DNA of 64,000 nt from Thermoproteota archaeon (GCA_026986575.1 JALSOH010000006.1:384001-448000), one strand, 5' to 3'. Positions 33,236-58,055 are shown, counted from the stretch's first letter. The notes: a model not told the origin generated them from the letters alone. Numbers and translations are program-made.

Positions 33236-33842
33236 AACAATAAAATAAATTTATCTTACTTTTAAGTCACGAGACCCGGAAAGTAGGGTAGAGCGATGAG
33301 CGGTGCTGAGGCAGCTGCCATCGTTCTCATAGTCATAGCAGCCCCGATCTTATTACATAATTTAACTTATGATTATTTACTCTCGAGGTGAGAACAGAGG
33401 CCAGCAACATCTTTCTCGCAGTCCTTCACACCTAGGCTTAAGCCAAACCGAAGCAAAAACTGGGCCTAAACAGAAGCCAGCCCCCGACCATGTCACCGCA
33501 GAGGACCCTTAGAGGAGTGAGATGGAGATCTGGTACGATAAGGCGACTGGCGAGTGCGTCAAAGCGGCTTTATACATTCCCGGGGTTGGAAGGATACAGG
33601 TCTTGGATATCCAAGCATGGACTGCTCGTCAAGTGGACCTCTTAAGAGTAGAAGGGGTTCTTGTGGCCTACGTGTGATCTTAAGACGTAAAGACGTATTC
33701 AAATACAGGTAGCCTCTAGCGGGACCTAGCTGGCTGAGCCCCTCCTGGAACTAAGAGTTCCCACGAGCGACTCTCATGAATCGTTAAAGATCGTTGGATG
33801 GGGGAATCCAAACGACCGGACCGGAAAGGAAAAAAGGCCTCC

Positions 33843-41498: not shown

Positions 41499-42364
41499 GA
41501 GAGGTCCCCCTCAGTCACTAAGTAAGTTTCACCATCCATCACGGCGTAGTACCCAGATGAAGCTTCGAACTCTCCCCAAACAGCAGGTATCACCTCGGCC
41601 TTGGGTTGATACCCCTTCATCCTCTGGAAGATCTTCATCGTTCCAACGGGTCTGAGACCGTTCTCCTCGAGGCACTCGCTCACACCCTCCCCACACAAGA
41701 GCGGTTGTATGAGCCTACCCCTTACCTTATCGCCGACCCTCACGAGTTTGACCTTCTTCACCACAATGGGATGCATCTTGCCCCTGAAGGAGTGCTTGGC
41801 ACCGAATCCGAATTCCCTCATGGCGCTCTCCAATAAAATGAGGGCCCTCTCCAGTTCGTTCCTATCGTATGATAGTAGGGAGAATCTCCAGATGGCTCCA
41901 GGTGCCCAGAAGTAGTGTACGGTGTAGTTGATTACCCTCCTAGTGAGGTCTGAGTCAAGCCCGAATAACTGGTACCCGTACACCTTTAAGGGACCCATCC
42001 CAGCCCTCTTTATCGTGCCTAATGCCGTCGCAGTTCCATCCAAGATTACGTTGAAGTCCTCCCTGATCACCTTGCTTGATCTGAGCATGACCCCATCAGT
42101 CACGCCAACACGGGGTAACTTGCGCGACAGGAGTGTGCTATATTCCATGCCTATCTCGCTTTTGGAATTCACCCACCTGTTGTAGTAAGAGTAGAAGTTC
42201 TCCCCTTGGACGCTCATCACGACCCTCAGCATGGCTCCGGCCACTGCCGTCCTATAAATGAATCCCCCAGGCCTGAAGACATTCACCTTCATGGTGGTCT
42301 GGGTGGAGCACACGGGCTCGACATTAACGGCCCTTATGAAATAGAGATAGGGCTGGGAGGTCAA
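41456..42364 (-). CDS. cas5: Cas5-group RAMP (Csc1-like)
   Basis: Position after cas7; PGAIWRF and G-rich loop FGFGAK..RG; divergent. Confidence 0.6.
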   Translation of the reverse strand: MTSQPYLYFIRAVNVEPVCSTQTTMKVNVFRPGGFIYRTAVAGAMLRVVMSVQGENFYSYYNRWVNSKSEIGMEYSTLLSRKLPRVGVTDGVMLRSSKVIREDFNVILDGTATALGTIKRAGMGPLKVYGYQLFGLDSDLTRRVINYTVHYFWAPGAIWRFSLLSYDRNELERALILLESAMREFGFGAKHSFRGKMHPIVVKKVKLVRVGDKVRGRLIQPLLCGEGVSECLEENGLRPVGTMKIFQRMKGYQPKAEVIPAVWGEFEASSGYYAVMDGETYLVTEGDLSWPTGSWEPTGSLR

Positions 42365-43677
42365 CCGATTCCCCCCTCTCTCCCCCTTTTCTTCTGCTGT
42401 TGGGGAGCGAGATCCTTTATTGCATCATTATAGTTATTCCTGGCCCTCTTCGGCTTTCCCAGAAAATCTATAACCGAGGCAGCGTGTTCCACGAGCAGCC
42501 TGAACGCGTCATCCCTCTCCAAGAGGGACATCCCCTCACTCATGTAGTCTTCGAGCCTTTTTATCGCCTTCTCCCCTACATACCTTACCAGCACCGACTT
42601 CTCTCCTAACTTAGCCACGCATATTCCCCTACAATCGCCTACGACGTCGAAGAATGTGGCCTTATATCCAGCTTCTGGGTCCCTTACATCTATGGGCATC
42701 GACGGAGGCGGTGGATTTGCTAGATAACCCTCTACTGAGAAGACCTCATCCACGACTATCAGAGGGATACCCTCCTTCACACAGTGATCCCAAACGCCGG
42801 CGCCCGATGAGGTCTTGGCCCCCTTCCTGACATCTTTCACGAGATGCTCGTAGGCGAGCATGGCCAGCTCCAGTTTGGTAGGATTGAAGAGAGTTGTCTT
42901 GAAATATCCAGGCCCTTTGAACATGTACTCTACGAAGAACATCATTTCCTCACTAGTTCCCCCCTCCTGAGTCGTGCCAGCCCTAGGAACCCTGTTCCTC
43001 ACGATCTTCTCCAGTAGTGAGGGCTCGAGTATCCGACTGCCGGCAGGCAGGCCCAGCTCCTTCGCAGCTGACTTCACCGTGAAGTAAGTCTTGAAGTCGG
43101 TCTCCTTGTACTTCTTCTCCCAGTTGACCGGAACGGCTCCCTGCGTGGCGGTTGAGGCGGCAGCCCCCTCAGCTATGCAAGCTGGGCAAACCCCGCATGG
43201 ATCAAGAGGGGTGCAAGAGGCCATCTTCATCACCACATTCCAAAGAGCCCTCTTAGCTGCGTCGTCCTCTAGAATATCATTGGCGACCTCCTCCACTATC
43301 TTCAAGTACTCCTTGGCCTCCCTCCCACTCTTGTCATTGGCTATGGCATCTAGAAATGGGTGCATGATCCTTCGGAGCGTCTCCCTGAAGAAGCTCTCCC
43401 TGACGTAGTTGAACTTGGTGGCCCTTATCCTCGCCCTAGAATCGAACTCGTACTTTCCGTCCTTCTCGTAGAGGAAGGGTTCCAGATCTGTTACTGCTTC
43501 GTTTATTTCCAACCTCTCATTACCTGAAAAGGCCCTATCGAACTGTATGCATCCCCATACTCTCACAGCCGGTATGGAAGGGAGTAACCCTATCTCCCTT
43601 CCGAGGCCGGACGGTACCTTCGAGAGGATGTCCGGCAACTCGCCGGGATCGCTCACAACCTCCCACTTGAACTCCAT
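42361..43677 (-). CDS. cas7: Cas7 backbone subunit (Csc2-like, enlarged to 438 aa)
   Basis: Zn motif C....PCGVCPAC..EG, TL.NPT..EL and GAKTSS.G resemble Csc2 signatures; strong AGGAGGTG RBS. Confidence 0.7.
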   Translation of the reverse strand: MEFKWEVVSDPGELPDILSKVPSGLGREIGLLPSIPAVRVWGCIQFDRAFSGNERLEINEAVTDLEPFLYEKDGKYEFDSRARIRATKFNYVRESFFRETLRRIMHPFLDAIANDKSGREAKEYLKIVEEVANDILEDDAAKRALWNVVMKMASCTPLDPCGVCPACIAEGAAASTATQGAVPVNWEKKYKETDFKTYFTVKSAAKELGLPAGSRILEPSLLEKIVRNRVPRAGTTQEGGTSEEMMFFVEYMFKGPGYFKTTLFNPTKLELAMLAYEHLVKDVRKGAKTSSGAGVWDHCVKEGIPLIVVDEVFSVEGYLANPPPPSMPIDVRDPEAGYKATFFDVVGDCRGICVAKLGEKSVLVRYVGEKAIKRLEDYMSEGMSLLERDDAFRLLVEHAASVIDFLGKPKRARNNYNDAIKDLAPQQQKKRGREGGIG

Positions 43678-43694
43678 AAAACCACCTCCTTATA

Positions 43695-44273
43695 CTAATC
43701 ACTTAAACCGGCCTGAAACGGGAGAGGAACAGGAGAGGAGTTAGAACCAGCTTGACTCTGACTGGAACATCCCAAGCCCCTCTTGGAGCTGTCAAACAGA
43801 GAACTGAGCCTACCGTCCCAGCCGAAGTGCACGTAGATGTATGAGACGTCTCTAACCCCCATGATCCCTATCACCACCTTCCTCGCCCTTTCAGATCGAT
43901 TTGATAGCTCCTTCACGAGAACATCAGTTAACTTAGCCAGCGACTTTTCCGCCACGCAGCTGATCGACCCCCTCAGCTTTGACCTTATCTTATCCATGGC
44001 GTAATTCAGGAACTTACCAGAGTAGTTCTTCAAGGTCCTTACTGGGTCTAGCTTGGGATCAACGCAGGAGGCGAATCTCATGAAGAGTGAAAATTTCTCC
44101 GTCTGACTGCTGTCACTGCCCAGCAGGTTGGCGCTTCTTGACACCAAGAAGAGCAAGGCTCCCAGCGTAAAGGATATCTCCTCGCTTTCCAACTCTCCCA
44201 AGGATTTGAGCCTCCTCTCCAGCTCCTCGAACGAGGACGGGATGATCTCAACCCCACTTAGGCCCTCACCCAT
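43695..44273 (-). CDS. Putative small subunit (Cas11d-like / C-terminal part of Cas10d)
   Basis: Helical 192-aa ORF between cas10d and cas7 with its own GGAGGTG RBS; assigned by position. Confidence 0.5.
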   Translation of the reverse strand: MGEGLSGVEIIPSSFEELERRLKSLGELESEEISFTLGALLFLVSRSANLLGSDSSQTEKFSLFMRFASCVDPKLDPVRTLKNYSGKFLNYAMDKIRSKLRGSISCVAEKSLAKLTDVLVKELSNRSERARKVVIGIMGVRDVSYIYVHFGWDGRLSSLFDSSKRGLGCSSQSQAGSNSSPVPLPFQAGLSD

Positions 44274-46257
44274 TTTTGTTCAGCACCTCCCTGACCATCC
44301 TCAATGCCCCCAGCTCCCGAGACTCTCGCAAGTATTCCACGAGATCCATGAACTTCTCGAGCGTCAACCCCTTGGGAATCTTACCATCCATCTCCTTCAG
44401 TAGGATGGCCCCTATCTGAGCCCTGTCACCTTCCAACTTATGAACCATCCCTTCAGGCTTCAATCCCAGGTTTCTGAGCTTCTTGATGGATTTCCCTATT
44501 CTCTCCAGCAATTCAACGTAGTCCTCCGGATCCCACACCCCCCTCACGAGGATGTGGTCCCAGACCTGTCCCGGAGACATGGGCCCGTTCCCGATTCTCA
44601 GCCCCCATTCGAACTTGTAAGTCACGCGACCACAGGGAAGAACCACCTTCTCCTCCCCTAGCCCTTCCATCAAATCTGAGAGGAGAGAATTTAGCTCCCC
44701 CAAGAGATCCTCTCCTCTCGATTTCATGAGGGAAACCATGACGCTCAATCCGTACCTCCTGAAATCCCTCGAAGTGAAGGATGATCTGAGTTTAGAGAGC
44801 ATAAGTTCCCTGAGGTAGTAGGAGAATACCTCGACAACTAGGGGGTCCGTGTCCCCCGAGCAAGGAGGTGAAGTGATCTCCATGATCCTCTCGGTCCCGT
44901 AGAGAACGAAGGTCACTGGGACACCGCTATCATAGGAGCTCCTGCTGAAGAGCCAGAGGCATGTCGGGCAGAGGGGTCTATCGTTATGCTCAAGTCTGCC
45001 CTTGTAGTTGTAAATGCTATCGGATACGGCCCTCAGGTAACCTAGCTGCATGCTCTTCTCGAGAGTTACCATTTCACCGCTTAATCCCCTTGAGACTCCC
45101 TCACTATCGCCTAGATATTCCCTCAGCTCCTTTGTGTCCAGTACTTTAGCCATCGGCCTTCCGCAGGAGTAGCAGGGAAAGCCTTTATCCGTAGGAACAG
45201 GCCTGAAACCAGAGTGCAAGGCGTCTACCAGGGCATCCCTGAGCCTTACATCGAAGTTTTCCTTCCCCGCCACAAGGTTTATCTTCCAGTGACGGAGCGT
45301 TACTAGGTCCTCGAGTATATTGTTGGGAACGTTACTGAACTCCTTTCTCAAATTGAATTCCTCTTCAGGAGCTCCCAACCAGACGGCTACAATGATTGAG
45401 CTATTATCTTCTACCACCGAGCCCCTCAGGAGGGATAAACCGCCCCACTCGGTTCTCACTATTTCCTTGTCAACGATCTTCCTCAATGAATCATAGAAAC
45501 CTAAGAAAGCAGATACAACTGCCGTGGGCCTGGCTTCAAATAATGCGCGGTTGAGGGATAGAGAGATGACATGTATCGCCGGCTCACCCACCATCTGCTG
45601 GAGTGATCTTATCATCTCCACAATCTCGGTCACATCCGATTTGAAGGAGGGACCTCCCTCCCAAGCTGATGCTATGGAGTCAGCAACCCTCAAGCTCATG
45701 GAGTGGGCCTTGGCTAGGGGGATGGGATCTGGAAGGGGACATCCGATCTCATCAAAGAAGGAACCCAATGCCTCGGCAACCATTTCTATCTTCTCGGGCG
45801 TCCTCATTCCCTCATGAGATGCGTTAGCAGCTCTCAACACGTTCTCAATTATGGAGCCTTCCACCTCCCTCAGGAGGTCCCGTACCGAGCTCGGTAGGAT
45901 CGCCATCTCCTCATCCAGCAAGGATGACATGAGCAACCTTAGGGCCTCCTTATTCCTCTCCACATCCAAATTGCCGTGTCCATCGAACCTTCTCATTGCA
46001 TCCATATCTCTGACCATGTCCTCCGGCACAAACAGCTTATCGTAATCGTGGTAAAGGCTCTCCAAGAAGACTAGATCGCTGTAGGAATCCAGCAGCTCTT
46101 GGCCCATACCGCATTCCTTCGCGTGACGGGCGATCACGTATTGAGAGGGAAGGTTAAATATGGTTCTGAGGGTGTATACAGCTATCCCATGCTCGTAGAA
46201 GGTCTGGGTATTCCTTCCCCACTTACCCAGATTGGCCCTAATCATCGCCGGGGGCAT
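44266..46257 (-). CDS. cas10d: Cas10d-like large subunit with N-terminal HD nuclease
   Basis: HD motifs YEH, YHDYDK, SHEG and VADSIAS; Zn finger CYSCG...CPTC; heads the cas7-cas5-cas3' operon. Confidence 0.7.
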   Translation of the reverse strand: MPPAMIRANLGKWGRNTQTFYEHGIAVYTLRTIFNLPSQYVIARHAKECGMGQELLDSYSDLVFLESLYHDYDKLFVPEDMVRDMDAMRRFDGHGNLDVERNKEALRLLMSSLLDEEMAILPSSVRDLLREVEGSIIENVLRAANASHEGMRTPEKIEMVAEALGSFFDEIGCPLPDPIPLAKAHSMSLRVADSIASAWEGGPSFKSDVTEIVEMIRSLQQMVGEPAIHVISLSLNRALFEARPTAVVSAFLGFYDSLRKIVDKEIVRTEWGGLSLLRGSVVEDNSSIIVAVWLGAPEEEFNLRKEFSNVPNNILEDLVTLRHWKINLVAGKENFDVRLRDALVDALHSGFRPVPTDKGFPCYSCGRPMAKVLDTKELREYLGDSEGVSRGLSGEMVTLEKSMQLGYLRAVSDSIYNYKGRLEHNDRPLCPTCLWLFSRSSYDSGVPVTFVLYGTERIMEITSPPCSGDTDPLVVEVFSYYLRELMLSKLRSSFTSRDFRRYGLSVMVSLMKSRGEDLLGELNSLLSDLMEGLGEEKVVLPCGRVTYKFEWGLRIGNGPMSPGQVWDHILVRGVWDPEDYVELLERIGKSIKKLRNLGLKPEGMVHKLEGDRAQIGAILLKEMDGKIPKGLTLEKFMDLVEYLRESRELGALRMVREVLNKNG

Positions 46258-46557
46258 CCAATCACCCTACTATCAGCTATTATAAGATTTTGATGCATTT
46301 GTTTCAAAAAATGGGGGGGAGATGAAACGCTCGACAAACGATCCTCCCTCACTGAGGGATGGGCTTCGGACTGGGAGGGAACTTCGGTCCCATGGTCTCA
46401 CTAATAGCTTTAATGAGGTTCCTGGAAAATCAAAGTTCCCTGACAGCTTAATTCTCTAAATTAACGGATGATGGGACTCTAGAGATCATTAAAATCTACG
46501 GGATCGCTATTTCAATTGGGCGGATATTTATTAAAATCGGGAACCTCCAAGCCCAGA

Positions 46558-48084
46558 ATGCGCCTCCTGAAACGCCTTCTCTCTGAGATCAGGAGAGCTT
46601 CTTCGATCATGAGAGTGGATCCCCTGAGATCATCACCTAGGGAGGTGATGCTTGAAAACTTCGATCCAACCCCTGGCTACAGGTACGGGGTTGCTACCTC
46701 TGAAGGTAGGATGAGGATCTCCTCCAAGCTCAGCGACGAGCTCATAGAGTTAGTTATCAGGAGAGAGGCTTTTATACATCTCTTACCCGAAGGAGAGGGT
46801 GAGCTCCCCCAGATAATTGACCTGGCTTGGGCATACTCAGAACCCCCTGAAGACCTGTGGAAATCATGCTACTCAGCTCCAAAGTACGCCATGTTCCAGA
46901 ACTATGAGCCTTTCAAGATGTTCTATACCCTGCCAAGCAGGAAAAAGAGAATGGAAGCCTTAAGGCGTATTTTACTGGCTGTCAGGTCTCTCTCATCCCA
47001 AAGGGCATTGGATTTCCCTAGATACCATTATATCCTGAGGAGGATGCTTGCTCCCTTCTTTAAACCTACTCCAGCCGATAACAAGATGTTAAAGGTGCTC
47101 AAAAAGGACCCGTATGCCAGCAGGGACAAGTTGAGGAGGGAGACCGGTCTAAGCCCGGCATCGATATCTAGGAGTTTGAGCAGGCTGAGAGACATGGGAT
47201 TCATCTCCGGTCCTGCCAATGTTGACCTGAGCAAGTTGGGGCTACTTACGCTGGTCGTGACCTTTCCCAACAGAAGGGAACTAAGGGATTCCTTAATGAC
47301 CTTCCCCTTCACATACAGGGTGTTTGAACCAGTCTCAAGGGATGTGGACGCTCACGCTTTTCTGCTGATACCCAGGGAGGCCCTCAATTACATGGAATCT
47401 CTTGAGGAAATGGGACTTGGTGTGTATCAGGTGATCAAGCAGAAATTCATCCTGAACCTCTCACCCCCTAAGAATCCCATGGAGCTCCTGCTTGAGGCCC
47501 TTCAGGAGGAGCATGCCGATGTGGAATCAGGAATTGAGGTGAGCTGGCCCAAGAGAAAGATCAGTAGGGAGGATTTAAGGGTCTTGAACGTAGCTCTACT
47601 GAAAGGGGAGGTTAAGCCGTCCCATTTGAAGGAGATTGGCGTCTCTTCCCCGAGATACAAGCTCAGGAAACTCAAGGAGGAAGGGATCTTATCCCATTTC
47701 TACACTCTAGGCGTACCTCCTGCTGGTGATGACCTCCTCCTAAGGTTGGAGCTTGAGGAAAACCAGTTCAGGAGATTGGTCGAGGCTATAGGGAAGGTAT
47801 CCACCGTTATAGCTGCTTACATACGGGGTTCCTCATGGGAGGGGTCCATGGGGAGCCTCCTACCCAAGGATTATCTCAGGGGGAGGCTGGTCAGGGGGCT
47901 GAAACTTCTGCTGGGGGATAGGCTCATTTTGGCAGAGGATGCTATAGATTATTTGGGCGAGTGGACCATTCCCTTGCACCTATGGGATGAGGAGAAGCAG
48001 AGGTTCATGTGGGAGGATGATCTGAGCCTGCTACTCACTAGGATCAGGTTGGCCGTCAGGGAAGGCGTCTTGGGATTTTCTTAG
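46558..48084 (+). CDS. Large Lrp/AsnC-like protein with two wHTH domains
   Basis: DNKMLKVLKKDPYAS..KL..ETGLSPASISRSLSRL...G and EDLRVLN...YKLRKLKEEGIL; divergent from cas10d. Confidence 0.7.
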   Translation: MRLLKRLLSEIRRASSIMRVDPLRSSPREVMLENFDPTPGYRYGVATSEGRMRISSKLSDELIELVIRREAFIHLLPEGEGELPQIIDLAWAYSEPPEDLWKSCYSAPKYAMFQNYEPFKMFYTLPSRKKRMEALRRILLAVRSLSSQRALDFPRYHYILRRMLAPFFKPTPADNKMLKVLKKDPYASRDKLRRETGLSPASISRSLSRLRDMGFISGPANVDLSKLGLLTLVVTFPNRRELRDSLMTFPFTYRVFEPVSRDVDAHAFLLIPREALNYMESLEEMGLGVYQVIKQKFILNLSPPKNPMELLLEALQEEHADVESGIEVSWPKRKISREDLRVLNVALLKGEVKPSHLKEIGVSSPRYKLRKLKEEGILSHFYTLGVPPAGDDLLLRLELEENQFRRLVEAIGKVSTVIAAYIRGSSWEGSMGSLLPKDYLRGRLVRGLKLLLGDRLILAEDAIDYLGEWTIPLHLWDEEKQRFMWEDDLSLLLTRIRLAVREGVLGFS

Positions 48085-49492
48085 AGATCAGGGATTTGAG
48101 CCAGTTAACGTAATCACTGTCCACATCTGGGAGATATATACTCACTTCAGGATGACCACTGCCCTCCCTTTTGGCCAGCTCCGCGCGCACGAGGCCCTCC
48201 CTCATCAGGGCTTCCATGACCCTCCTCCTGCTTAGTATCCCCCTAGGATTCGAGAACCTGCCCCCAAGAAGGACCTCAATCTCCTCGACGGAAAGGCCCT
48301 TCTCCCTCTTCCTATCACTTATCTTCTTGGACAGGGATTTTTCGCACTCCTCTCCGGGATTGTATTCAGAGCACAGCCTCCTGCTCACTATCCTAGCAAA
48401 AATCTTTGAGCCTTTATAATCGGAGTCTAGGGCGTCCTTCATGCAAAGCATGGTGAGGACGAGAGCCTCCAAGTCTGAAAGCAAAGGGGTCCTGAACATA
48501 GGTGTTCTAAGCCCCAGCCTCGACATGGTCAGAAGAACCCTGTGGAGATCCTTGATTCTGACGCCAGAGAGGAACTCCCCGTGTATATATGAGTATGCCT
48601 CGTACCCCCTCCTTATTTCTGACTTGAAGGGCTCTGACAACCTCTTATAGGCGGAGTACATCCTCCTAGAAGGATAGAGGATCTTTGATGTCCAGAGGTC
48701 CGGGTTGAGATACACCAGACCCACGAACGCAGCCCAAGAATCCGATTCTTCTCTCCAGAGAGATGGGTTCGTGTAGAAAACCTTCTGCCCGAGTACGATG
48801 TCCGCCGCCATACGGAGTATCCGCCTCATCTTCCTCCTAGTATCCCTGTGAACACTCCCTGATTTCACCAATTGAGTTAGAAAGCCGTCCTTTGAGACTA
48901 AAGTTATATCCTTATATCTTAGCGGTTTCGATGGAAGAGGAACTTCTTTAAACGGAGATATTAGCTTCTCAGCGTCTCTCCTTCTGACATGGGCCAAAGA
49001 TCCCTCTAGGACGTAAATTTCAGTGTAAAAATTGGATGACCTGCTGCCCGGTAGGTCTGACAGCTTTCTATTCAGATATCCTCTAAAAGCATGAGAAAGG
49101 ATTCTCCATCTGGATATCAGGCTATCTAAATTCATATTTTTTCTGAGGAAAACGTTAACGGCCAATCTTACTGAAAAGAGCCCAAAGGAGTAGGAGTGCT
49201 CCATAAGGATTGGCAGCTCCGGTGAGGGAAGGCCCACGCGGTTGGGATCCAAACTGAAACCCTCCTCCAAGTTTACCTCATTGCCGCTCAGCCGCCTCAC
49301 TTTCCTCTCCACCAAGAAGCCTGCACACGGGAATTCCGGCCCGGGATTTCCATCTCTCAACTCCTTACTCTTGACGGCTCTACCCACCCCTCTCACGTCG
49401 TCCTTGGTCAAGGAGAGACATACCTCAGCAATTCTACTCATCATCCCACTTGGGTCAACCTTGTAGAACCTAGGCCTGAGACCAGCTCTCAT
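48056..49492 (-). CDS. Hypothetical protein with probable C-terminal wHTH, downstream of cas6
   Basis: 478-aa ORF with GLSVEEIE...VMEALMREGLV; starts 23 bp after the cas6 stop. Confidence 0.6.
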   Translation of the reverse strand: MRAGLRPRFYKVDPSGMMSRIAEVCLSLTKDDVRGVGRAVKSKELRDGNPGPEFPCAGFLVERKVRRLSGNEVNLEEGFSLDPNRVGLPSPELPILMEHSYSFGLFSVRLAVNVFLRKNMNLDSLISRWRILSHAFRGYLNRKLSDLPGSRSSNFYTEIYVLEGSLAHVRRRDAEKLISPFKEVPLPSKPLRYKDITLVSKDGFLTQLVKSGSVHRDTRRKMRRILRMAADIVLGQKVFYTNPSLWREESDSWAAFVGLVYLNPDLWTSKILYPSRRMYSAYKRLSEPFKSEIRRGYEAYSYIHGEFLSGVRIKDLHRVLLTMSRLGLRTPMFRTPLLSDLEALVLTMLCMKDALDSDYKGSKIFARIVSRRLCSEYNPGEECEKSLSKKISDRKREKGLSVEEIEVLLGGRFSNPRGILSRRRVMEALMREGLVRAELAKREGSGHPEVSIYLPDVDSDYVNWLKSLISKKIPRRLP

Positions 49493-49515: not shown

Positions 49516-50442
49516 TCAGGCGGATCCCCTCTTCGATCTTCCCTTGCGATGAGGGTGCAATCTCACTGCCACCACGCCGAAACCCATGGTCGTCCTCCTC
49601 CCAAGCCCCGAGAACTCGGCAAATCTCATTAAAGCTGCAGCCATCCTCCCAACGTAGGCATCCAGCCTTCTCATGCTGTAAGAGAGCCTTCCCAGCCAGC
49701 TCTCCCTAACGACTCTCTCATCGCCGAACCACAGCTCCACCACGGCTTCCTTGAACCAAGTGGGATTTTCGGGCTCGGCTAGGTAGAGGTGCCTCACTAG
49801 TGTACCGGGGAGTCTAAGTTCCTCCGGCGCATTCGAGTTCCAGGCCTCGAATGGCCTCTCAAGTACGTGAGGCAGGGGCGGAGGGAACTCCTTGTCAAGT
49901 ATGGTGTTTGTGATGAGCTTGAAAATAACTCTCCTCGCTACCGGAGACCTGAGGAGGAGGTTCTCGTAATCCTTCCTTCCTATCTTAACTTCAGCTACCT
50001 CCAGTGGGACACCATTAACCTCGAGGTCGGCCTTTAGTATTCCCTCGACCAGAGGATCAACGAACTCATCTCTCAGGAGTTTAAAGGTAGCCCTTACTTC
50101 TCCCCCCTTGGGGACCGAGGCGTACCTTCCCCTAACGAACTCCCTAGCGGTCGTGAGCCTGGTTACCGAGTAGGGAGCACCCATTCCGAGAGAGGAACTG
50201 AGATCATGTAACTTCCTCGATAGATCCTTAGACTCAGCCGATAATGATCTGAAAAGCATGGATTGCACCAGTCTTCCTGAAGAAGGAAGTTCATACAGCA
50301 ATCTATCACTGGCCAGTAGGTAAGCTGTAATCATCGCGGGCAATTGACCCACCCTAATGGCTCCGTGATGTAGTTCGACTAATGCATAAAAAGTATTGTT
50401 CCATTGTTTCAAAAAGGACCGCAATCTTGAAACTATTGACAA
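49516..50442 (-). CDS. cas6: CRISPR RNA endoribonuclease Cas6
   Basis: PYSV motif and C-terminal FAEFSGLGRRTTMGFG (GhGxxxxxGhG). Confidence 0.85.
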   Translation of the reverse strand: MSIVSRLRSFLKQWNNTFYALVELHHGAIRVGQLPAMITAYLLASDRLLYELPSSGRLVQSMLFRSLSAESKDLSRKLHDLSSSLGMGAPYSVTRLTTAREFVRGRYASVPKGGEVRATFKLLRDEFVDPLVEGILKADLEVNGVPLEVAEVKIGRKDYENLLLRSPVARRVIFKLITNTILDKEFPPPLPHVLERPFEAWNSNAPEELRLPGTLVRHLYLAEPENPTWFKEAVVELWFGDERVVRESWLGRLSYSMRRLDAYVGRMAAALMRFAEFSGLGRRTTMGFGVVAVRLHPHRKGRSKRGSA

Positions 50443-50477
50443 ATTACCTCTTTTTATTCACCGAAGGTAATCGAGAG

Positions 50478-51770
50478 ATGGCCATCCCAGAGACACTCGC
50501 CTCGGTCCTCAATGAGAAATTCAACTCCCTTAGCTTGGTTGAGAGGAGGAAGAGGGATCTCCTAGACCTAGCTGAGGGAATGCTGAAAGAGATAGCCACA
50601 TCGTTGGGAAGTGATGGGAGAAGGATAAAATACGTGAAGAAGGGGATCCTTCTCGATGACAGATACCTGATCTTCCTCGCGGAGAAGATGGACTCCATCC
50701 TGATAGAGAAGCTGAGCGCGAGGTACAGTCCCGAGGAGATGTTTCTCATCTGCTGGTATTCAACGGAATCGGCTGTTAGCCTCGCTAGGGAACGAAGGGC
50801 CAGTCTACTCATTCTATCCAGATCCCAAGTTCTGAGCACGGATACTGAGTTCTCCAAGGCCATACTGAAGCTCTGGGAGGAGAAAGGATTCTATTTAGAA
50901 TATTTCAGGAGTCTAAGCTCTGAGGAAAACATTTTCGATCAAGAGACCTTTTTCCTTGCGGAACTCATCGCTCTCAGGGAGTTCTACAGAGAAGAGGTGT
51001 CGAAAAATCTAGATTCCAAGGTCATTGAACTACTTGACGACTTGGAGGAAATGGTGTTGAAAGAGGAAGATGAAACCGAAATTAATAGACTCCTCATCGC
51101 CATACTAGAGGCCTATCCAGCGAAGATAGATGAGAGGAACTCGGCCAAGCCTGGCAAACCGGATGTAATAGCATACTCACCACTTTGGACCTTATTTGAA
51201 CTAAAGAACGAGGAAGCAAATAGGTCTCACGTAGATCAGGCCAGAAAATATGCCAGTGAGTATAGAGGAACCTCTAGATCTCCCTTAGGCGTACCTTGGA
51301 GGACCGTCTTGATAGCGACCGAGGTTTCCCCTGATGTCCACTCCTATGCGCTCAAGAAAGGCATTAGGACTATGACTTGGGGGGTTCTGATAGGCTTTTT
51401 GAGGGATGTATACTCGAAAGGAGTGCCGCTGGAGCTTCTGAGGGACTCACTTGATAGCACCGATCCACAAAACACCTTGGTTTCCCGGGTGGACGATTAC
51501 CTTGAGGCATTGAGGGCCCGAGCTGAATTGCTTAAGGAGATCCTCTCTGTGAACGGAATTGACAGGAGAGAATTGGATAGGATAGTGGCATCGAAAGACT
51601 ATCCGTGGATCGGAGAGCTGGAGGAGATGATTCACGAGCTATCTGGTCCTTTAATCGGTTTCTTAGTCGTAGAAGAGGACCTAATCTCCTACAGAGGGCC
51701 CCATTCCATTAGCAGGGCCCTCAGGGCTCTCGGCTATTTAGGGGGTATGGTAAATGATGGACTCTGGTAG
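50478..51770 (+). CDS. PD-(D/E)xK nuclease domain protein (NucS/Mrr-like catalytic signature)
   Basis: GKPDVIA...LFELK...A....VDQARKY; ATG at 50478 avoids overlap with cas6. Confidence 0.7.
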   Translation: MAIPETLASVLNEKFNSLSLVERRKRDLLDLAEGMLKEIATSLGSDGRRIKYVKKGILLDDRYLIFLAEKMDSILIEKLSARYSPEEMFLICWYSTESAVSLARERRASLLILSRSQVLSTDTEFSKAILKLWEEKGFYLEYFRSLSSEENIFDQETFFLAELIALREFYREEVSKNLDSKVIELLDDLEEMVLKEEDETEINRLLIAILEAYPAKIDERNSAKPGKPDVIAYSPLWTLFELKNEEANRSHVDQARKYASEYRGTSRSPLGVPWRTVLIATEVSPDVHSYALKKGIRTMTWGVLIGFLRDVYSKGVPLELLRDSLDSTDPQNTLVSRVDDYLEALRARAELLKEILSVNGIDRRELDRIVASKDYPWIGELEEMIHELSGPLIGFLVVEEDLISYRGPHSISRALRALGYLGGMVNDGLW

Positions 51771-52464
51771 TGTGTACATCCCCTCCTACACGTACCCCGG
51801 CCTAGATGTGATCTACCGTGTGAGGGAAGAGGCCAAGGGTATAACAGCTAGACGAATCTCTAAAAGGCTCAATGTGAAGGAATGGAAGGTGAAATCAGCT
51901 CTGGGTATTCTCAGGGTTATGGGACTGATTAGGTCAGAAAGGAAGGGTGGAAGGACGGTCTACACATCTCAGGGAAACGGGTTGACGGAGGCCTACGCTG
52001 GAACCTTCTTCAGGGCTCTTCTGAGGCTTGAGGAAGCTAAGACCTTGGATCTGATAATAAAGGATCTCTGGCCCCGTGATAAGAGAGCGACAGCCCGCAA
52101 GAGGGCCACTTACCTGTTAGCGATGGGGAGGGATCTGGACCTTATAGAACGAAAAGATGGGACCTACACCCTCTCTCCAGTTGGCTTGAGATTGTCTGTT
52201 GCAAGGGCTCTGGAGGAGATCTACGCCATGGAATTGGGTGGGAAGCTTGGAGACTTTGTGAGTCTAACAAAGATCCTGAGCAGACTATCTGAATGGGGGA
52301 TGAAAAGGAAGACAGCCAAGAGGGCCATAATCTCGGCTCTTGAGGAGCTGGAAGCGGACCTCACACCATCCCCGAATCTCTCCTCCAAAGTGAGGAGGGA
52401 CGGTATAATGACGGAAAGGGGATACCTCTACTACCTCACCCTCTGGAACTGGAGGTGGAGGTGA
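51754..52464 (+). CDS. Basic multi-wHTH DNA-binding protein
   Basis: GITARRISKRL...VKSALGILRVMGLI and RATYLLAMGRDLDLIE...YTLS..G wHTH-like repeats. Confidence 0.6.
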   Translation: MMDSGSVYIPSYTYPGLDVIYRVREEAKGITARRISKRLNVKEWKVKSALGILRVMGLIRSERKGGRTVYTSQGNGLTEAYAGTFFRALLRLEEAKTLDLIIKDLWPRDKRATARKRATYLLAMGRDLDLIERKDGTYTLSPVGLRLSVARALEEIYAMELGGKLGDFVSLTKILSRLSEWGMKRKTAKRAIISALEELEADLTPSPNLSSKVRRDGIMTERGYLYYLTLWNWRWR

Positions 52465-52465
52465 A

Positions 52466-53836
52466 ATGGCCGACTACAGGAAGTACGGCCTCATCAGGAA
52501 CCCCTTCCCTCTGCACGGTTCCTTTCCCTTGGACGACAAATACGAGGAGAGATACGCCAAGCTTCTGATAGGAAGAGATAATCTGAAGGAGTTGCTAAGG
52601 AAGAAACTGGAGAACCTTAGAGCCGGTGAGTCCTCTGCTGTTTTACTTTTACTCGGAGATTATGGCACCGGGAAGACTCACTGCCTGAAGTTCATGCAGC
52701 ATTGGGCTATAAGAAAGTATAGGAACATAATTCCCCTGTACTTCAAGGGTCTCCCCGGGCCGAAAATGAGAGACCTTCTCAGAACCTTCTTAGACTCTTT
52801 GGAAGGGATCTTGGGAAGAGACTACCTGATGAAACTTGCATCAGAATCCCTTAACGTCGAGAGGAGCGGTCTAGTGGATACCAAGAACTTCCTGTTGGCC
52901 CTGGCCTCCAAGAACAGGAGCAAGGTCATCCCGGCCCTCAGGTGGGCCAAGGGTTACGGGCTATCCGATCAGATGAGGGAGAAACTTGGTCTCGTATCGG
53001 ACCTTGATGAATCAGTCGCTAGGGACGTTCTCTCGACCCTCCTAGAGATTATATGGGAGGTGAGGGGTACCAAGACACTGCTTCTAATAGATGAAGTTGA
53101 GGAATTGCTCAAATATGACCAGGAGGATCTTTACGACTTCTATTCCGGTCTCAGAAACCTCATAGACACGGTCTCCACGGGAATGATGATGGTCCTAGCT
53201 TCTACACCCTCCCTACTAAGGGACGAGGAGAAGGGCATCGCAGCTCTAAACCCAGCTTTGAATAGCAGGATCTCGGACGAAAACACCATTATCCTCTCGC
53301 CCCTTGACTCCATAGGAATAAGGGCCATGATAATCTCTTATCTCAGGGAGTTCAGGATACCCAGCGTTAAGAAGCTTATGAGCACATACCCCTTCACTGA
53401 GGAGGCCATCAACCTGATCGCTGATCTGAGCAGGGGAATACCAAGAAACGCCCTGATGCTCGCGAGCATAGCTCTGAGGGAGGCCCTATCCAAGGGAAAG
53501 AAGCAGATAGATGACGCATTCATCAGAACGATCCTAGAGCTAAGGAAGGATGAGTTAGCAGACTTCTTATTGGAATTTAAAGGTGAGGGAGAGGAAAGAA
53601 GAGATTTCAAGGAGAAACCAGTTGGACCAGCTCCTGTGGACGAGAGGACGGCTCTGAAGGTGAAGGTGATCAAAATATTGGAGGAACTCGGCGGAGTGTC
53701 CCCGAGATCTAGGATCCAGCAGAGAGTCAAGGAGATCTCCAGAAAGAAGTTCTACAGGTTGCTCGAGGAGATGAGAGATGAGGGAATGATTGATCTGATC
53801 AAGGTAAGGGGAGGGTACAGGGTGGTCCTCAAATGA
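52466..53836 (+). CDS. P-loop/AAA-type ATPase with C-terminal wHTH
   Basis: YGL..NPF N-terminus, Walker A GDYGTGKT, Walker B LLLIDEVE, ALNSRI, GIPR and terminal HTH. Confidence 0.8.
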   Translation: MADYRKYGLIRNPFPLHGSFPLDDKYEERYAKLLIGRDNLKELLRKKLENLRAGESSAVLLLLGDYGTGKTHCLKFMQHWAIRKYRNIIPLYFKGLPGPKMRDLLRTFLDSLEGILGRDYLMKLASESLNVERSGLVDTKNFLLALASKNRSKVIPALRWAKGYGLSDQMREKLGLVSDLDESVARDVLSTLLEIIWEVRGTKTLLLIDEVEELLKYDQEDLYDFYSGLRNLIDTVSTGMMMVLASTPSLLRDEEKGIAALNPALNSRISDENTIILSPLDSIGIRAMIISYLREFRIPSVKKLMSTYPFTEEAINLIADLSRGIPRNALMLASIALREALSKGKKQIDDAFIRTILELRKDELADFLLEFKGEGEERRDFKEKPVGPAPVDERTALKVKVIKILEELGGVSPRSRIQQRVKEISRKKFYRLLEEMRDEGMIDLIKVRGGYRVVLK

Positions 53837-54849
53837 AGAAAGTGCTCGTGGTGGATCTACCTGGTGTGGGGCTCAGGCTCACTGAGGAGAGGCTGGTCAT
53901 GGCGAGCAGGGGCAGGAGAGAGGAGGTACCCATCAGCGACCTAGAGGAGGTCCGTATCTCCCCAAGGGTATCCCTATCATCCGATGTCCTGATTTCCCTG
54001 ATGGAGAAGGGTGTACTGGTTACTCTGGTGGACGAGAAAGGAGATCCAAGGGGAATAGTGGTAGTTCCCACCTTCGGAGGTACGGTCAGGACTAGAAGGG
54101 AGCAGCTCCTTAGTTACTATGATAAGAGAGGACTCAAGCTAGCCAAGAGCTTCGTGGAGGCCGCGACCCTCTTCAGGACGTGGGTCCTTAGGAAGCTCTC
54201 TATTAGCAGGCCCGAGAAATCGGAGAAGCTGTTATCATTGAAGGAAGATGTAGAATCAGTCGTACCTAGCATTAGAGCTCTCGATGGTTCTAACGTGGAC
54301 GAGGTTCGAGGCGAGCTTATGGCCTTGGAGGGCACGGCCTCATCCAAGTACTTCGAGGCCCTCTCCTTGGTCATCTCGGGGGAATTCTTCTCCGGTACGA
54401 GGACTAGGAGACCTCCTAGAGACCCGCTCAATGCCGCCATAAGCTATGGAAACTCCCTTATATATACAGAAACTTTGAAGTGCATCATATTCTCCGGACT
54501 GGATCCCTTCGCAGGTTTCCTACATGTGGATAGGCCGGGGAGATTCTCCCTAGCCCTAGACCTGGCCGAGGAGTTCATAGTTTATGCCTCCCATTGGCCA
54601 GTCATAACACTCTTCTCCAAGAGAATGATTGGGCGTGAGGACTTCAGGGGTTCGCCAGAGACGGGTGTCTACCTAAACTACGAGGGAAGGGAGAAAGTCT
54701 TCAGGGCTGTCTCATCCACCCTGACGAGGCACGTGAGTTACAGGGGTAAGAAGTGGAGATTGAGGGATCTCATGCTCTTGAGGGCTAGGAACGTCGTCAC
54801 CTTCGTGAGGGGAGAGTCTGATTACGAGGTCTTGGTGCCTTGGGAATGA
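53833..54849 (+). CDS. cas1: CRISPR-associated endonuclease Cas1
   Basis: LMALEG....YF, RRPPRDPLNAAISYG, GLDPFAGFLH and SLALDLAEEF. Confidence 0.95.
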   Translation: MKKVLVVDLPGVGLRLTEERLVMASRGRREEVPISDLEEVRISPRVSLSSDVLISLMEKGVLVTLVDEKGDPRGIVVVPTFGGTVRTRREQLLSYYDKRGLKLAKSFVEAATLFRTWVLRKLSISRPEKSEKLLSLKEDVESVVPSIRALDGSNVDEVRGELMALEGTASSKYFEALSLVISGEFFSGTRTRRPPRDPLNAAISYGNSLIYTETLKCIIFSGLDPFAGFLHVDRPGRFSLALDLAEEFIVYASHWPVITLFSKRMIGREDFRGSPETGVYLNYEGREKVFRAVSSTLTRHVSYRGKKWRLRDLMLLRARNVVTFVRGESDYEVLVPWE

Positions 54850-55142
54850 TGACACTCGTGATCTACGACATCAGCGACGATGATATCAGGAAATCCGTGG
54901 AGAAGGTATGCAAGAACTATGGACTCAGACACATACAGAGGAGCGCCTTCATCGGCCTCCTATCCAGAGGAGACAGATACAGTCTCTACAAGGAGCTGAA
55001 AAGGCTGCTCTGGGAGGAAAAAGGATCTATACGAATATATGTGATGAATCGGAGGCTCTACAACATGAGGATGTCTGTGGGCGTCTTGGAGGGCTTCGAT
55101 GATGACCCAGAATACGATGAAGAGGTTTATATCAGGCCCTGA
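54846..55142 (+). CDS. cas2: CRISPR-associated endonuclease Cas2
   Basis: LVIYDISDD and GL.HIQRSAF.G. Confidence 0.95.
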   Translation: MMTLVIYDISDDDIRKSVEKVCKNYGLRHIQRSAFIGLLSRGDRYSLYKELKRLLWEEKGSIRIYVMNRRLYNMRMSVGVLEGFDDDPEYDEEVYIRP

Positions 55143-55677
55143 GGTCAGGGCATCCGACCTGAGGCAGTGGTACTATTGCCCACGCTTAATATACTGGAGA
55201 TACACTTTCAGGGCACCTTGGAGGCCAGGTAGAATCACGAAACTTGATGAGAAGCACGATCCCAGCTGGGTGGGGAGGTTGAAGGCCTTCAGTGGCTGTG
55301 AGGTGGAGAGGAACGTGTGCCTTAGATCAAAAACCCTCAACCTAGTGGGATGCATGGATGCCCTCCTGATGTGCGGCGATGAACTCATCCCTTTGGAGAT
55401 GAAGAGAGGAACCATCAGAGATGGGCACGACGTTCAGCTGTGTGCATACGCTATGCTGATAGAGGAGAACTTCGAAGTGAAAGTGACGAGAGGATACCTA
55501 TACTATCCCGGTGAAAAACTGGAGGAAGTTCCTATGGACAACGCGCTGAGAAAGAAGGTCTTGAGGACTTTAGATCTCATCAGGAGAATCCTAGAGGAAG
55601 GCATGATGCCGGAGCCAACGAAGGATAAGTGGAAGTGCAGAGTGTGTGATCACTACACTTATTGTGGCGGTGTCTGA
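55099..55677 (+). CDS. cas4: CRISPR-associated exonuclease Cas4
   Basis: YYCPR, G.MD...PLEMK, QLCAYA and C-terminal KCRVC.H...C; start possibly 55117. Confidence 0.95.
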   Translation: MMTQNTMKRFISGPEVRASDLRQWYYCPRLIYWRYTFRAPWRPGRITKLDEKHDPSWVGRLKAFSGCEVERNVCLRSKTLNLVGCMDALLMCGDELIPLEMKRGTIRDGHDVQLCAYAMLIEENFEVKVTRGYLYYPGEKLEEVPMDNALRKKVLRTLDLIRRILEEGMMPEPTKDKWKCRVCDHYTYCGGV

Positions 55678-55691
55678 TCCCCTTTCTTTTC

Positions 55692-57755
55692 GAGCCCTGA
55701 TTGCTTCGGAGGAGATCGCTAAGTTACTTGAGCAAGCTACGGAGACTTTCAATCTTCGCTCCTTAGGAGCCCTGATTGCTTCTTCAGGCACTCTGTTTTC
55801 TTGTGAAGAGCGATAGAAAAGCTTTCAATCTTCGCTCCTTAGGAGCCCTGATTGCTTCCTCTGTTGTGGCACTAGCATGTGTACATACCCATTCACCTCA
55901 ACTTTCAATCTTCGCTCCTTAGGAGCCCTGATTGCTTCTAGCTTTCTCAAGCTGCTGCCTCAACTGAGATTCCATCTCCAAGATAAGCTTTCAATCTTCG
56001 CTCCTTAGGAGCCCTGATTGCTTCCTGTTGCCGCCCGCCTTCCCTCCCATTTATACACCAAATTCATGAAGCTTTCAATCTTCGCTCCTTAGGAGCCCTG
56101 ATTGCTTCGGGCCACTAGAGGGATGGTGACAGAGTTTCTACCGCCCTTAGCGACGGCTTTCAATCTTCGCTCCTTAGGAGCCCTGATTGCTTCGTTCCGA
56201 GTTTCTAGCTCTAGTTCGCTTCCTTATACGCTTTTCTTTCAATCTTCGCTCCTTAGGAGCCCTGATTGCTTCATCTCAAGAGAGGGGGCTCTAGAGACAG
56301 GAGGTACTTCAGAACTTTCAATCTTCGCTCCTTAGGAGCCCTGATTGCTTCAGGAGTATGCCCGTGCATATGATCAGATCGAGGATGTTGTCGAGTTCAA
56401 GTTGGGTTTGGTCTTTCAATCTTCGCTCCTTAGGAGCCCTGATTGCTTCTCTGCATTTGGAGGGTGACCCCCCCATCTCCCTTCTCTTTCAATCTTCGCT
56501 CCTTAGGAGCCCTGATTGCTTCGAGTTCTCTTAGCTGATTTGATCTTCACCCAAGGAGGTAAGCTTTCAATCTTCGCTCCTTAGGAGCCCTGATTGCTTC
56601 AAGAGGATAGAGCATTATTCTCTCTAGATCTCCCTCCATCTTCTCAGCTTTCAATCTTCGCTCCTTAGGAGCCCTGATTGCTTCGTGTAAGCAAAGATGA
56701 GAGTCTTAGATCTCTTTTTTGGCATGGGTCTTTCAATCTTCGCTCCTTAGGAGCCCTGATTGCTTCAGGGATTACTTTGGGTATCCCTACTTTGATGTGT
56801 CTTTCTTTGGAACCTTTCAATCTTCGCTCCTTAGGAGCCCTGATTGCTTCGGTAAGCTCGACCCAGTCCTCGTCCATGCGATCGAGGTGCAGCTTCTCTT
56901 TCAATCTTCGCTCCTTAGGAGCCCTGATTGCTTCTACAAGCAGAAGAGGTGGCTGACTAAGAAAGAGCTGGCCGAAAGCTTTCAATCTTCGCTCCTTAGG
57001 AGCCCTGATTGCTTCATCTTGACTGGAGGGTGCTCGGCTATCAACCAGATGTCGTGTACTCTTCTTTCAATCTTCGCTCCTTAGGAGCCCTGATTGCTTC
57101 TATAAATCAGCCTTCTTTCGGTGAGGGAGAGATAAAAAGGATTTTCCTTTCAATCTTCGCTCCTTAGGAGCCCTGATTGCTTCGGCCGAAATACAGGATA
57201 AAATAGCGAAAAAGCTCCAGCTAGCGACCTTTCAATCTTCGCTCCTTAGGAGCCCTGATTGCTTCTGCCAGCCTACACATCAGTAGACAGGGAAAGGGGA
57301 TGGGTGTACTCCGACTTTCAATCTTCGCTCCTTAGGAGCCCTGATTGCTTCAAGGCATTCCTCATTGAGATAAAGAGGACTAGGGGAAGCTTTCAATCTT
57401 CGCTCCTTAGGAGCCCTGATTGCTTCAATCGTGAATCTGACCCCGCACAACATATCCGTCTTCGTCGCTGGCTTTCAATCTTCGCTCCTTAGGAGCCCTG
57501 ATTGCTTCGCGAGGAAGGACAGGGGCTACCTCACTCAGTCTCAGAAGGAACTTTCAATCTTCGCTCCTTAGGAGCCCTGATTGCTTCGTACAGAAAAAGT
57601 GTCTCACCGAAGGAGATCATTGTTGTGTTAAGACTTTCAATCTTCGCTCCTTAGGAGCCCTGATTGCTTCGAAGGAGCTGGCTAAGGCCAAAGCTGGTAC
57701 GGTACCCACTCCTCCTGACTTTCAATCTTCGCTCCTTAGGAGCCCTGATTGCTTC
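55692..57755 (-). CRISPR. CRISPR array: 25 identical 37-bp repeats plus one degenerate terminal repeat, 25 spacers of 36-61 bp
   Basis: Repeat (minus strand) GAAGCAATCAGGGCTCCTAAGGAGCGAAGATTGAAAG with a GCTCC/GGAGC hairpin and ATTGAAAG 3' end; full copies from 55746 to 57755; partial copy 55692-55707. Confidence 0.97.
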
Positions 57756-58050
57756 CGATGCTGGGATATCCTCTTACTAAATAAAGACAACTATCCGCCT
57801 GTTTCACTAATATTATACAGTTATGAAATGTCCTCGTATCTTGCTTGTATATAAAGGGATTATGAGAAGATTAGGGACAAATGCATTTGCCAGTAATGAA
57901 ACAAATAAGGCCACCATAACGTAAAGACTCTATAAATAATCCGAATTAGATTTAATCAATTTTAGTTAATGCTTGGTCTTATTGTTAATTCATTAATTGT
58001 TGAATCCCGTGCAGGAAGATAAAGATTATCTCGCTTTACACCTACTAACT
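57756..58050 (-). promoter_or_regulatory. CRISPR leader
   Basis: AT-rich non-coding region at the end opposite the degenerate repeat; minus-strand TATA-like TTTATTTA at 57778-57785. Confidence 0.75.
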
Positions 58051-58055
58051 AGTCT

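Follow-up and report, generated by a model that had tools for sequence, protein, structure and literature searches.

Introduction

How archaeal CRISPR systems source prespacers and find the leader of their arrays is largely open, and to our knowledge archaea are without RecBCD. Several described systems come close to the locus reported here. The adaptation cassette of Sulfolobales type I-A systems comprises csa3a, csa1, cas1, cas2 and cas4. In Tn7, TnsA, a restriction-enzyme-like nuclease with a winged-helix domain, works with TnsC. Many COG1672-type archaeal ATPases join a C-terminal winged helix-turn-helix (wHTH) and a restriction-endonuclease-like DUF234 to the ATPase, placing the same three functions in a single chain. 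In bacteriophage exclusion (BREX), BrxD is classed as an ORC-Cdc6 AAA+ ATPase without an additional DNA-binding domain (PMC12839542). Here we describe three genes, for a nuclease, a wHTH protein and an ATPase (the trio), that are built into a cas1-cas2-cas4 operon at positions 50478-55677 of a 64,000-nucleotide stretch (the window, G000:C6:384001-448000) of an archaeal genome of 1.9 Mb in 11 contigs.

The trio is linked to cas1, cas2 or cas4 in every locus with visible context

The operon consists of six co-directional open reading frames (ORFs) on the + strand, in the order nuclease, wHTH, ATPase, cas1, cas2, cas4, with overlapping or abutting borders:

50478..51770, + strand: gene 1, nuclease, 430 amino acids (aa); the ORF is also readable from 50382
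51754..52464, + strand: gene 2, winged-helix protein, 236 aa
52466..53836, + strand: gene 3, ATPase, 456 aa
53833..54849, + strand: cas1 (Pfam 5.7e-67; TIGR00287 231 bits), of the trio-linked Cas1 group
54840..55142, + strand: cas2, TTG start (Pfam 6.7e-17), overlapping cas1 by 10 nucleotides (nt)
55099..55677, + strand: cas4 (Pfam 8.2e-16; TIGR00372 1e-37), overlapping cas2 by 44 nt

Homologues of the nuclease begin at the matching position, which supports 50478 as its start, and the nuclease stop (TAG, 51768-51770) falls 17 nt inside the wHTH gene, whose ATG is at 51754. A single nucleotide separates the wHTH stop (TGA, 52462-52464) from the ATPase ATG at 52466, and the ATGA at 53833-53836 is common to the ATPase stop (TGA) and the cas1 start (ATG). 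A first-pass annotation of the stretch had proposed these six genes, their touching borders and the three cas assignments; the ORF coordinates and profile scores bear out each of them.

ATPase context is visible in nine loci: the window, G019:C98 (apparently identical with contig L004, as both measure 19,113 bp and have one layout), G003:C61 (L005), G025:C1, G031:C8, G027:C46, G028:C140, and two low-GC metagenome contigs, L037 and L038. In 9/9 of them cas1, cas2 or cas4 is contiguous with trio genes. The seven loci of family f1 share the order trio-cas1-cas2-cas4; the G027 contig is cut after cas1, and in G003 and G028 the contigs end before the genes for the nuclease and the wHTH protein. L037 has the order cas1-cas2-cas4-trio, and in L038 a divergent cas1 is followed by trio-cas2-cas4. 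Within the trio the internal order is constant, with nuclease then wHTH in 11/11 visible cases and wHTH then ATPase in 8/8. The L037 and L038 orthologues are full or near full length relative to those of the window, at 26-35% identity for the nuclease, 22-25% for the wHTH protein, 33-35% for the ATPase and 41-42% for Cas1. The BLASTP match of the L038 nuclease covers 27% of the window nuclease; its alignments with the L021 and L037 members span 63-88%.

The trio-linked Cas1 proteins form a group of their own. Across the phylum, cas1 matches occur in 21 of the 43 genomes examined. Apart from the window's own protein, the seven full-length trio-linked Cas1s are 41-65% identical to window Cas1 and the partial G027 Cas1 (L079) 43%, against 25-34% for 17 other Cas1s of the phylum. 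In an IQ-TREE phylogeny of 24 rows, the eight trio-linked Cas1s make up one side of a branch with support 100/99. This tree left out L078 and L079 (<250 aa), L080, for which BLASTP gave no hit, a fragment (L085) and a broken cas1 of G000:C4. The group persists when the six nearest non-trio Cas1s (31-38% identity, drawn from 401 archaeal genomes) are added, with a Shimodaira-Hasegawa-like approximate likelihood ratio support of 100 (quick method, 30 rows). A profile search of the six genomes of these added Cas1s gave no nuclease match. The broken second cas1 of the window's genome lies at G000:C4:880243-880935 (L002, L003), with two matches in different frames and an internal TGA.

By contrast with this single Cas1 group, the effector modules near the trio differ. 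In the window and in G019, the six-gene unit faces an effector operon with cas6 at its head and a Cas3' helicase gene at its end. G025 has the unit together with cas6 and an array, at ~3.5 kb from a type I-A module (Cas3a, Cas8a, Cas5a, Cas7a, Csa3) that is followed by III-B. In G031 a III-B module sits ~17 kb from the trio unit. The 438-aa effector protein of the window has counterparts in G019 (71% identity) and G003 (69%); the same query brought up none in G025, G031 or G027. Hence the trio keeps to cas1-cas2-cas4 rather than to any particular effector. The first-pass annotation had named linkage of homologues to cas1 as one check on its proposal, and that linkage proves consistent across lineages and arrangements: nine of nine loci, three gene orders, different effectors, one Cas1 group.

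Divergence within the operon is uneven. Between the window and L004, identities are 38% for the nuclease, 44% for the wHTH protein and 49% for the ATPase, and 55% for Cas4, 65% for Cas1, 66% for Cas2 and 71% for the 438-aa effector protein. Either rapid evolution of the trio or an exchange of modules could be the cause.

The ATPase resembles Orc1/Cdc6 initiators

Judged from its predicted structure, the 456-aa ATPase is an AAA+ protein of the Orc1/Cdc6 clade with a C-terminal winged helix. The features that define it are:

52655..52678, + strand: Walker A, G64-x-Y-G-x-G-K70-T71, with G64, G67, G69, K70 and T71 invariant in 12 sequences
53090..53095, + strand: Walker B, D209 E210, invariant in 12 sequences
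53642..53833, + strand: C-terminal winged-helix domain, residues 393-456, in the order H-E-H-H-E-E in the model

The model has a mean predicted local distance difference test (pLDDT) score of 85.8. Compared by VIA-align, from which all Z scores here derive, it is closest to A. pernix ORC2 (Z 20.0), S. solfataricus Orc1/Cdc6 (Z 19.5) and P. aerophilum Cdc6 (Z 17.9; root-mean-square deviation (rmsd) 3.0; 262 aligned), and full-length alignments with Orc1/Cdc6 chains extend to residue 456. The next-best folds are TnsC (Z 15.4-16.8), MuB (15.2), BrxC (15.1) and DnaA. Two further residues, R268 and R327, are invariant in the 12 sequences and are presumed to be the arginine finger and sensor 2. In Pfam it matches BrxC_BrxD (PF10923; 9.8e-18, 64.7 bits against a cut-off of 22.2), with AAA_22 and AAA_16 also matching; the L037 and L038 orthologues likewise score above the PF10923 cut-off, at 38.2 and 34.6 bits. 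A profile search against PDB sequences returned weak rows, the best at E 0.024, to RuvB, FleQ and TnsC. The Pfam match and the Orc1/Cdc6 fold are reconciled because BrxD is itself an ORC-Cdc6 AAA+ protein (PMC12839542).

A complex prediction for Cas1 with the ATPase (alignments A8 and A9) scored 0.00 in both runs and weighs neither for nor against binding.

The nuclease is a PD-(D/E)xK enzyme of a very small family

The 430-aa nuclease consists of an N-terminal region (~1-175) of no recognised fold, a FokI/NucS-like PD-(D/E)xK domain, and a helical C-terminal region that is possibly a wHTH:

51000..51512, + strand: nuclease domain (residues about 175-345), where model m006724cdda82 is confident
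51162..51251, + strand: catalytic motif PD(229)...E(241)-L-K(243)...Q(254)xxxY(258), from the family alignment

Across 20 aligned family members, D229 and E241 are invariant, and E199, K243, Q254 and Y258 are kept in at least 90%. The AlphaFold model, built from five sequences, has an overall pLDDT of 55.9 and is good at residues about 180-350. Within it, the nuclease domain aligns to the cleavage domains of N.BspD6I (Z 15.3, rmsd 2.9, 165 aligned), FokI (Z 13.7) and the small subunit of R.BspD6I (Z 12.9), and further to Hna (Z 10.4) and NucS (Z 9.4). The protein thus shows what defines the PD-(D/E)xK superfamily, conserved catalytic residues on the alpha-beta core fold seen in N.BspD6I and FokI. 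Foldseek yielded no PDB row at E <= 0.001, and its top rows were still PD-(D/E)xK nucleases; in the ESM Atlas the leads were Mrr_cat and FokI cleavage-domain clusters at 0.83-0.85. No family in Pfam, NCBIfam or PADLOC matches the window nuclease at E <= 0.01. Across the family, Pfam NucS_C matches 6 of the 20 members and Mrr_cat 3 of the 20. Identity as Csa1 or Cas4 was ruled out, as neither profile matches the protein and the true cas4 of the locus matches strongly.

From the conserved catalytic residues and the Walker A and B motifs, the nuclease and the ATPase are both likely to be enzymatically active.

The middle gene encodes a candidate adaptor

The 236-aa protein has a weak Pfam wHTH match (Fe_dep_repress, 7.4e-5, residues 17-66) and weak PADLOC matches to the wHTH parts of Csa3/CARF3 models, with no alignment to the CARF domain. 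Its ESM Atlas structure rows are MarR/ArsR-type wHTH proteins, at template modelling (TM) scores of 0.3-0.56, with no named family. Orthologues are present in every trio locus, full length and at 22-44% identity. We presume that it acts as an adaptor.

On these three proteins the first-pass annotation stands in most respects. The PD..ELK..QxxxY motif that it read in the nuclease is the conserved catalytic motif of the family, and the ATPase is, as described, a P-loop protein whose model ends in a winged helix. Its "multi-wHTH" description of the middle protein is borne out in part, by the single weak Pfam match and the MarR/ArsR rows.

The trio is rare

An exhaustive profile search found 17 cluster representatives of the nuclease family at E <= 0.001 among 1,835,955,588; a family this small points to a narrow reach in nature. 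A word-index search with the nuclease gave three homologues besides itself. The ATPase has six close relatives and one distant one, and a word-index search with a wide ATPase alignment, its candidates pre-filtered by shared words, gave 10 proteins.

Of 401 archaeal genomes sampled around that of the window, seven have a full-length nuclease gene, and all seven are within the window's own family (7/36, including G000). A further 53 of the 401 have short core matches only (query ~233-291; ORFs mostly 250-270 aa), and we read these proteins as NucS-type and not as members of the nuclease family. Metagenomes scanned with the close ATPase alignment yielded no relative, and a scan with the distant nuclease members returned L037-L040. 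Scans of viral contigs with the ATPase and nuclease alignments found none. The cluster of the L037-type nuclease includes a member labelled as from an Aenigmatarchaeota metagenome-assembled genome; the trio unit is therefore not confined to one phylum.

Two sequencing runs (X1, X2) contain the whole of 50300-55700; one is labelled a hydrothermal vent metagenome, and they may be the source samples. Among the runs listed for this region, none is of RNA.

Surroundings of the operon

On either side of the six-gene unit lie a divergent cas6 gene and a CRISPR array:

49516..50343, - strand: cas6 (Pfam 3e-8), divergent from the trio, with its TTG start at 50343 taken from an alignment with three homologues
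50344..50477, no strand: intergenic region between the divergent cas6 and nuclease genes; a TATA-like TTTTTATT stretch lies ~20 nt upstream of the latter's ATG
55746..57755, - strand: CRISPR array, 25 repeats of 37 nt

The longest cas6 ORF reads from a TTG at 50442, which leaves 35 bp to the nuclease ATG, the spacing first proposed. The gap is probably 134 bp, because three cas6 homologues start at the in-frame TTG at 50343. If cas6 had this 5' extension (50343-50442), it would overlap with the longer reading of the nuclease ORF, which starts at 50382. The TTTTTATT stretch within 50344-50477 is a putative promoter element.

Directly 3' of the cas4 stop, at 55685-55707, lies a degenerate partial repeat; this is consistent with a trailer, or old, end of the array on this side and a leader near 57756-58055, at the far end. 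The reverse complement of the CRISPR repeat ends in ATTGAAAG, which we take to be a CRISPR RNA handle motif; because of this repeat end, the array is probably transcribed on the minus strand, towards cas4, with its leader near 57756-58055.

The effector operon spans 41456-49492 (-) plus 39474-41498 and encodes, among others, proteins of 478, 663, 192, 438 and 302 aa. At E <= 0.01 in Pfam, NCBIfam and PADLOC, the 478-, 663-, 192- and 438-aa proteins match no family at all, Cas7, Cas5, Cas8 and Cas11 included; the 302-aa protein has a faint match to Cmr6 only (E 0.0095). Three proteins of the module, compared with PDB sequences, gave nothing useful. The Cas3' helicase is closest to I-D models. 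The operon may represent a variant of type I that is either highly divergent or unclassified. On the opposite strand amid the operon, 46516-48084 (+) encodes a 522-aa protein with a CasR/Csa3-like wHTH (residues ~185-243), and the same arrangement is seen in L004 (503 aa). In G025 (L045, G025:C1:88000-107999), the I-A and III-B modules stand back to back just downstream of the six-gene unit.

Elsewhere in the window, an intein that carries a LAGLIDADG domain splits a KaiC/RadA-like ATPase gene at 33798-36269 (+). Two further ORFs are Rad51-like (32385-33023) and family-B DNA polymerase-like (28890-30779).

A candidate accessory of CRISPR adaptation, and its alternatives

The lack of a match to a known system, the linkage in nine of nine loci, the varied effectors and the single Cas1 group together favour a module that serves adaptation. 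We propose, at a probability of about one half, that the trio works as one DNA-handling machine for capture and cutting, an ATP-dependent accessory of a particular Cas1-Cas2-Cas4 acquisition module; since it always lies within the acquisition gene cluster, it is probably an undescribed helper of viral DNA capture. In such a machine, the Orc1/Cdc6-type AAA+ protein in its ATP state would bind double-stranded DNA through the AAA+ insert and the C-terminal winged helix, the winged-helix protein would bridge ATPase and nuclease, and the FokI-like, sequence-independent cleavage domain of the nuclease would cut the bound DNA. Fragments would then pass to Cas4-Cas1-Cas2 for trimming and integration, and ATP hydrolysis would reset the ATPase switch. 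In a type I-A system, host factors still to be identified are needed for specific integration, according to PMC5815122. Built into the cas1-cas2-cas4 operon, moving between effector types and co-segregating with its own Cas1 group, the trio is therefore a concrete candidate for such a factor. If active, it would be a new accessory module for CRISPR adaptation, and would tie Orc1/Cdc6-type switches, so far seen in replication, BREX and transposition, to spacer capture.

A bolder form of this proposal, which we regard as unlikely, makes the trio the self-contained, ATP-driven "front end" of naive adaptation: the AAA+ switch and the adaptor would mark DNA, position the nuclease to excise prespacer-sized fragments, and recruit Cas1-Cas2-Cas4 as TnsC and MuB recruit transposases. 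Were this true, the cas operon of this lineage would encode functions that bacteria borrow from RecBCD and IHF, and the trio would represent a Cas protein complex of a new class, one that links in evolution the ATPases of replication initiation or transposition with CRISPR integration.

Several observations weigh against an accessory of acquisition. The Cas1s of all trio loci belong to one lineage, so that a single origin with later co-inheritance may account for the linkage; the only arguments that selection maintains it are the three rearrangements and the effector swaps. The trio diverges faster than its cas neighbours, which also fits a front-line defence system. The N-terminal ~175 residues of the nuclease have pLDDT <50, and a domain there could alter the interpretation. 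Finally, Orc1/Cdc6-type proteins also initiate the replication of archaeal plasmids and viruses.

The trio might instead be a self-standing innate defence, an ATP-dependent DNA sensor with a nuclease that acts like a restriction system, is co-regulated inside the adaptation operon, and feeds adaptation at most indirectly through its cleavage products. A nuclease, an NTPase and a DNA-binding adaptor make a common defence design; the ATPase shares PF10923 and a similar fold with BrxC (Z 15.1); Hna, Shedu, NucC and MspJI, which are defence nucleases, are among the fold matches of the trio nuclease; and a viperin-like (pVip) gene ~20 kb upstream in G025 (L044:13802-14983) suggests a defence island, to which the rapid divergence just mentioned may be added. 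Yet the trio is never apart from cas1-cas2-cas4 in the nine loci, sits between cas1 and cas2 in L038, and tracks one Cas1 group rather than the effector modules, and neither a fitting PADLOC system model nor a copy on the scanned viral contigs was found; we consider this explanation unlikely. The first-pass annotation had offered as alternatives a module that supplies prespacers or loads Cas1-2-4 and an innate defence system. Linkage, effector independence and the Cas1 group favour the side that serves adaptation.

Less likely still, the ATPase and wHTH protein could be an integration-site factor that shapes the leader-repeat junction and recruits Cas1-Cas2, in the manner of E. coli IHF, TnsC or MuB, with the nuclease secondary. 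The ATPase fold is as close to TnsC and MuB as to many ORC subunits, the L038 orthologue matches Pfam TniB (1.5e-5), the occurrence of winged helices in three proteins suggests DNA binding that is specific to sequence or shape, and the integration host factors of type I-A noted above (PMC5815122) would fit such a role. This account leaves unexplained a nuclease whose catalytic residues are fully conserved; the position of the array leader, ~2 kb from the operon at the far array end, speaks neither for nor against it. Least probable in our estimate is that the trio regulates transcription of the cas operon or array, or replicates or maintains a mobile element on which the adaptation genes reside. 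The weak matches to wHTH domains of Csa3/CasR-type regulators and the plasmid and virus initiators among Orc1/Cdc6 homologues would fit. A conserved active-site nuclease is unexpected for a regulator, however; a likely housekeeping Orc1/Cdc6 is already present on another contig; none of the 25 flanking ORFs scanned is an integrase or other mobile-element gene; and the stop/start overlaps with the cas genes argue for one expression unit and thus against either role. An ATP-dependent accessory of Cas1-Cas2-Cas4 acquisition remains the explanation that we favour.

Comparison with known systems

Neither the nuclease nor the trio as a set is named by a model in PADLOC, NCBIfam or Pfam. As the first-pass annotation held, the trio lies outside the core cas set, and PADLOC offers no described defence system that fits it. 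We found no description of the trio in the full-text papers searched, including the available parts of PMC12669027, 10.1101/270033, PMC3973734 and PMC12839542; supplementary tables, which may list such families, were outside this scope.

The ATPase shares the architecture of archaeal Orc1/Cdc6 proteins (AAA+ base, lid and C-terminal winged helix), with best structural matches at Z 17.9-20.0 and both Walker motifs kept. It differs from them in sequence, scoring 17.6 bits against the 181.3 cut-off of TIGR02928 and 15.2 against 501 for PRK00411, and in a long helical insert between the strand at 88-94 and the Walker B strand at 203-209. Unlike the initiators, it is encoded in a cas operon; a weakly matching ORF of ~378 aa on another contig is likely the housekeeping Orc1/Cdc6.

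The nuclease-NTPase pairing had initially been set beside McrBC-, BREX- and Ssp-like defence. The likeness of the ATPase to BREX goes no further than the Pfam BrxC/BrxD match, and the fold places the protein in the Orc1/Cdc6 clade and not among McrB-like or translocase motors. Against the BrxD equivalog it reaches 53.1 bits, over residues 159-270 only, where the cut-off is 350, and it carries a C-terminal winged helix, whereas BrxD, according to PMC12839542, is without an additional DNA-binding domain. A PADLOC scan of 14 locus proteins found no PglZ, PglX, PglW, BrxC or BrxHI neighbour, the sole BrxHI rows being weak and on the Cas3' helicase. BREX is ruled out by the missing neighbours and the low equivalog score, and McrBC by an NTPase that belongs to the initiator clade by fold and is not a McrB-type GTPase.

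TnsC, TniB and MuB share the AAA+ fold of the ATPase (Z 15.2-16.8), which also matches AAA_22, and the TniB match of the L038 orthologue points the same way. These proteins act beside a DNA integrase, whereas the partner of the ATPase here is Cas1-Cas2-Cas4 with a CRISPR array. No DDE transposase (TnsB/TniA) was found among 25 ORFs scanned by Pfam over 28-64 kb, transposon ends not being part of the search, and TnsA is absent from the best 50 structural rows for the nuclease, which weighs on neither side. CRISPR-associated transposon or Tn7-like systems are set aside because none of the ORFs scanned is a transposase. Classical restriction-modification is likewise ruled out, as Pfam and PADLOC show no methyltransferase match in the locus. 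The original statement that methyltransferase and DDE transposase are both missing thus agrees with the ORFs scanned, as does its case against classical restriction-modification, BREX and transposon readings.

With FokI/N.BspD6I, NucS/EndoMS and Mrr, the nuclease shares the fold (Z 15.3 to N.BspD6I, 13.7 to FokI and 9.4 to NucS) and the E..PD..ExK motif. Unlike them, it has no known restriction-enzyme recognition domain and no methyltransferase partner; it has its own N-terminal domain and a helical C-terminal domain, and forms a separate, very small family. Among COG1672-type archaeal AAA+ proteins, PAB2304 and SSO1545 have a fold like that of the ATPase (Z 15.3 and 14.5). The functions that such proteins combine are spread here over three genes, and PF01637 matches in one distant relative only (P0014).

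The Sulfolobales I-A cassette likewise encodes a second PD-(D/E)xK nuclease and a wHTH protein with cas1-cas2-cas4, and in genus g2 the trio unit adjoins a I-A effector module. The two nonetheless differ in all three components: the trio nuclease matches neither Csa1 nor Cas4, the wHTH protein has no CARF alignment, and the cassette is without the ATPase. Taken together, the trio is a real, conserved CRISPR-linked module tied to adaptation that is apparently undescribed.

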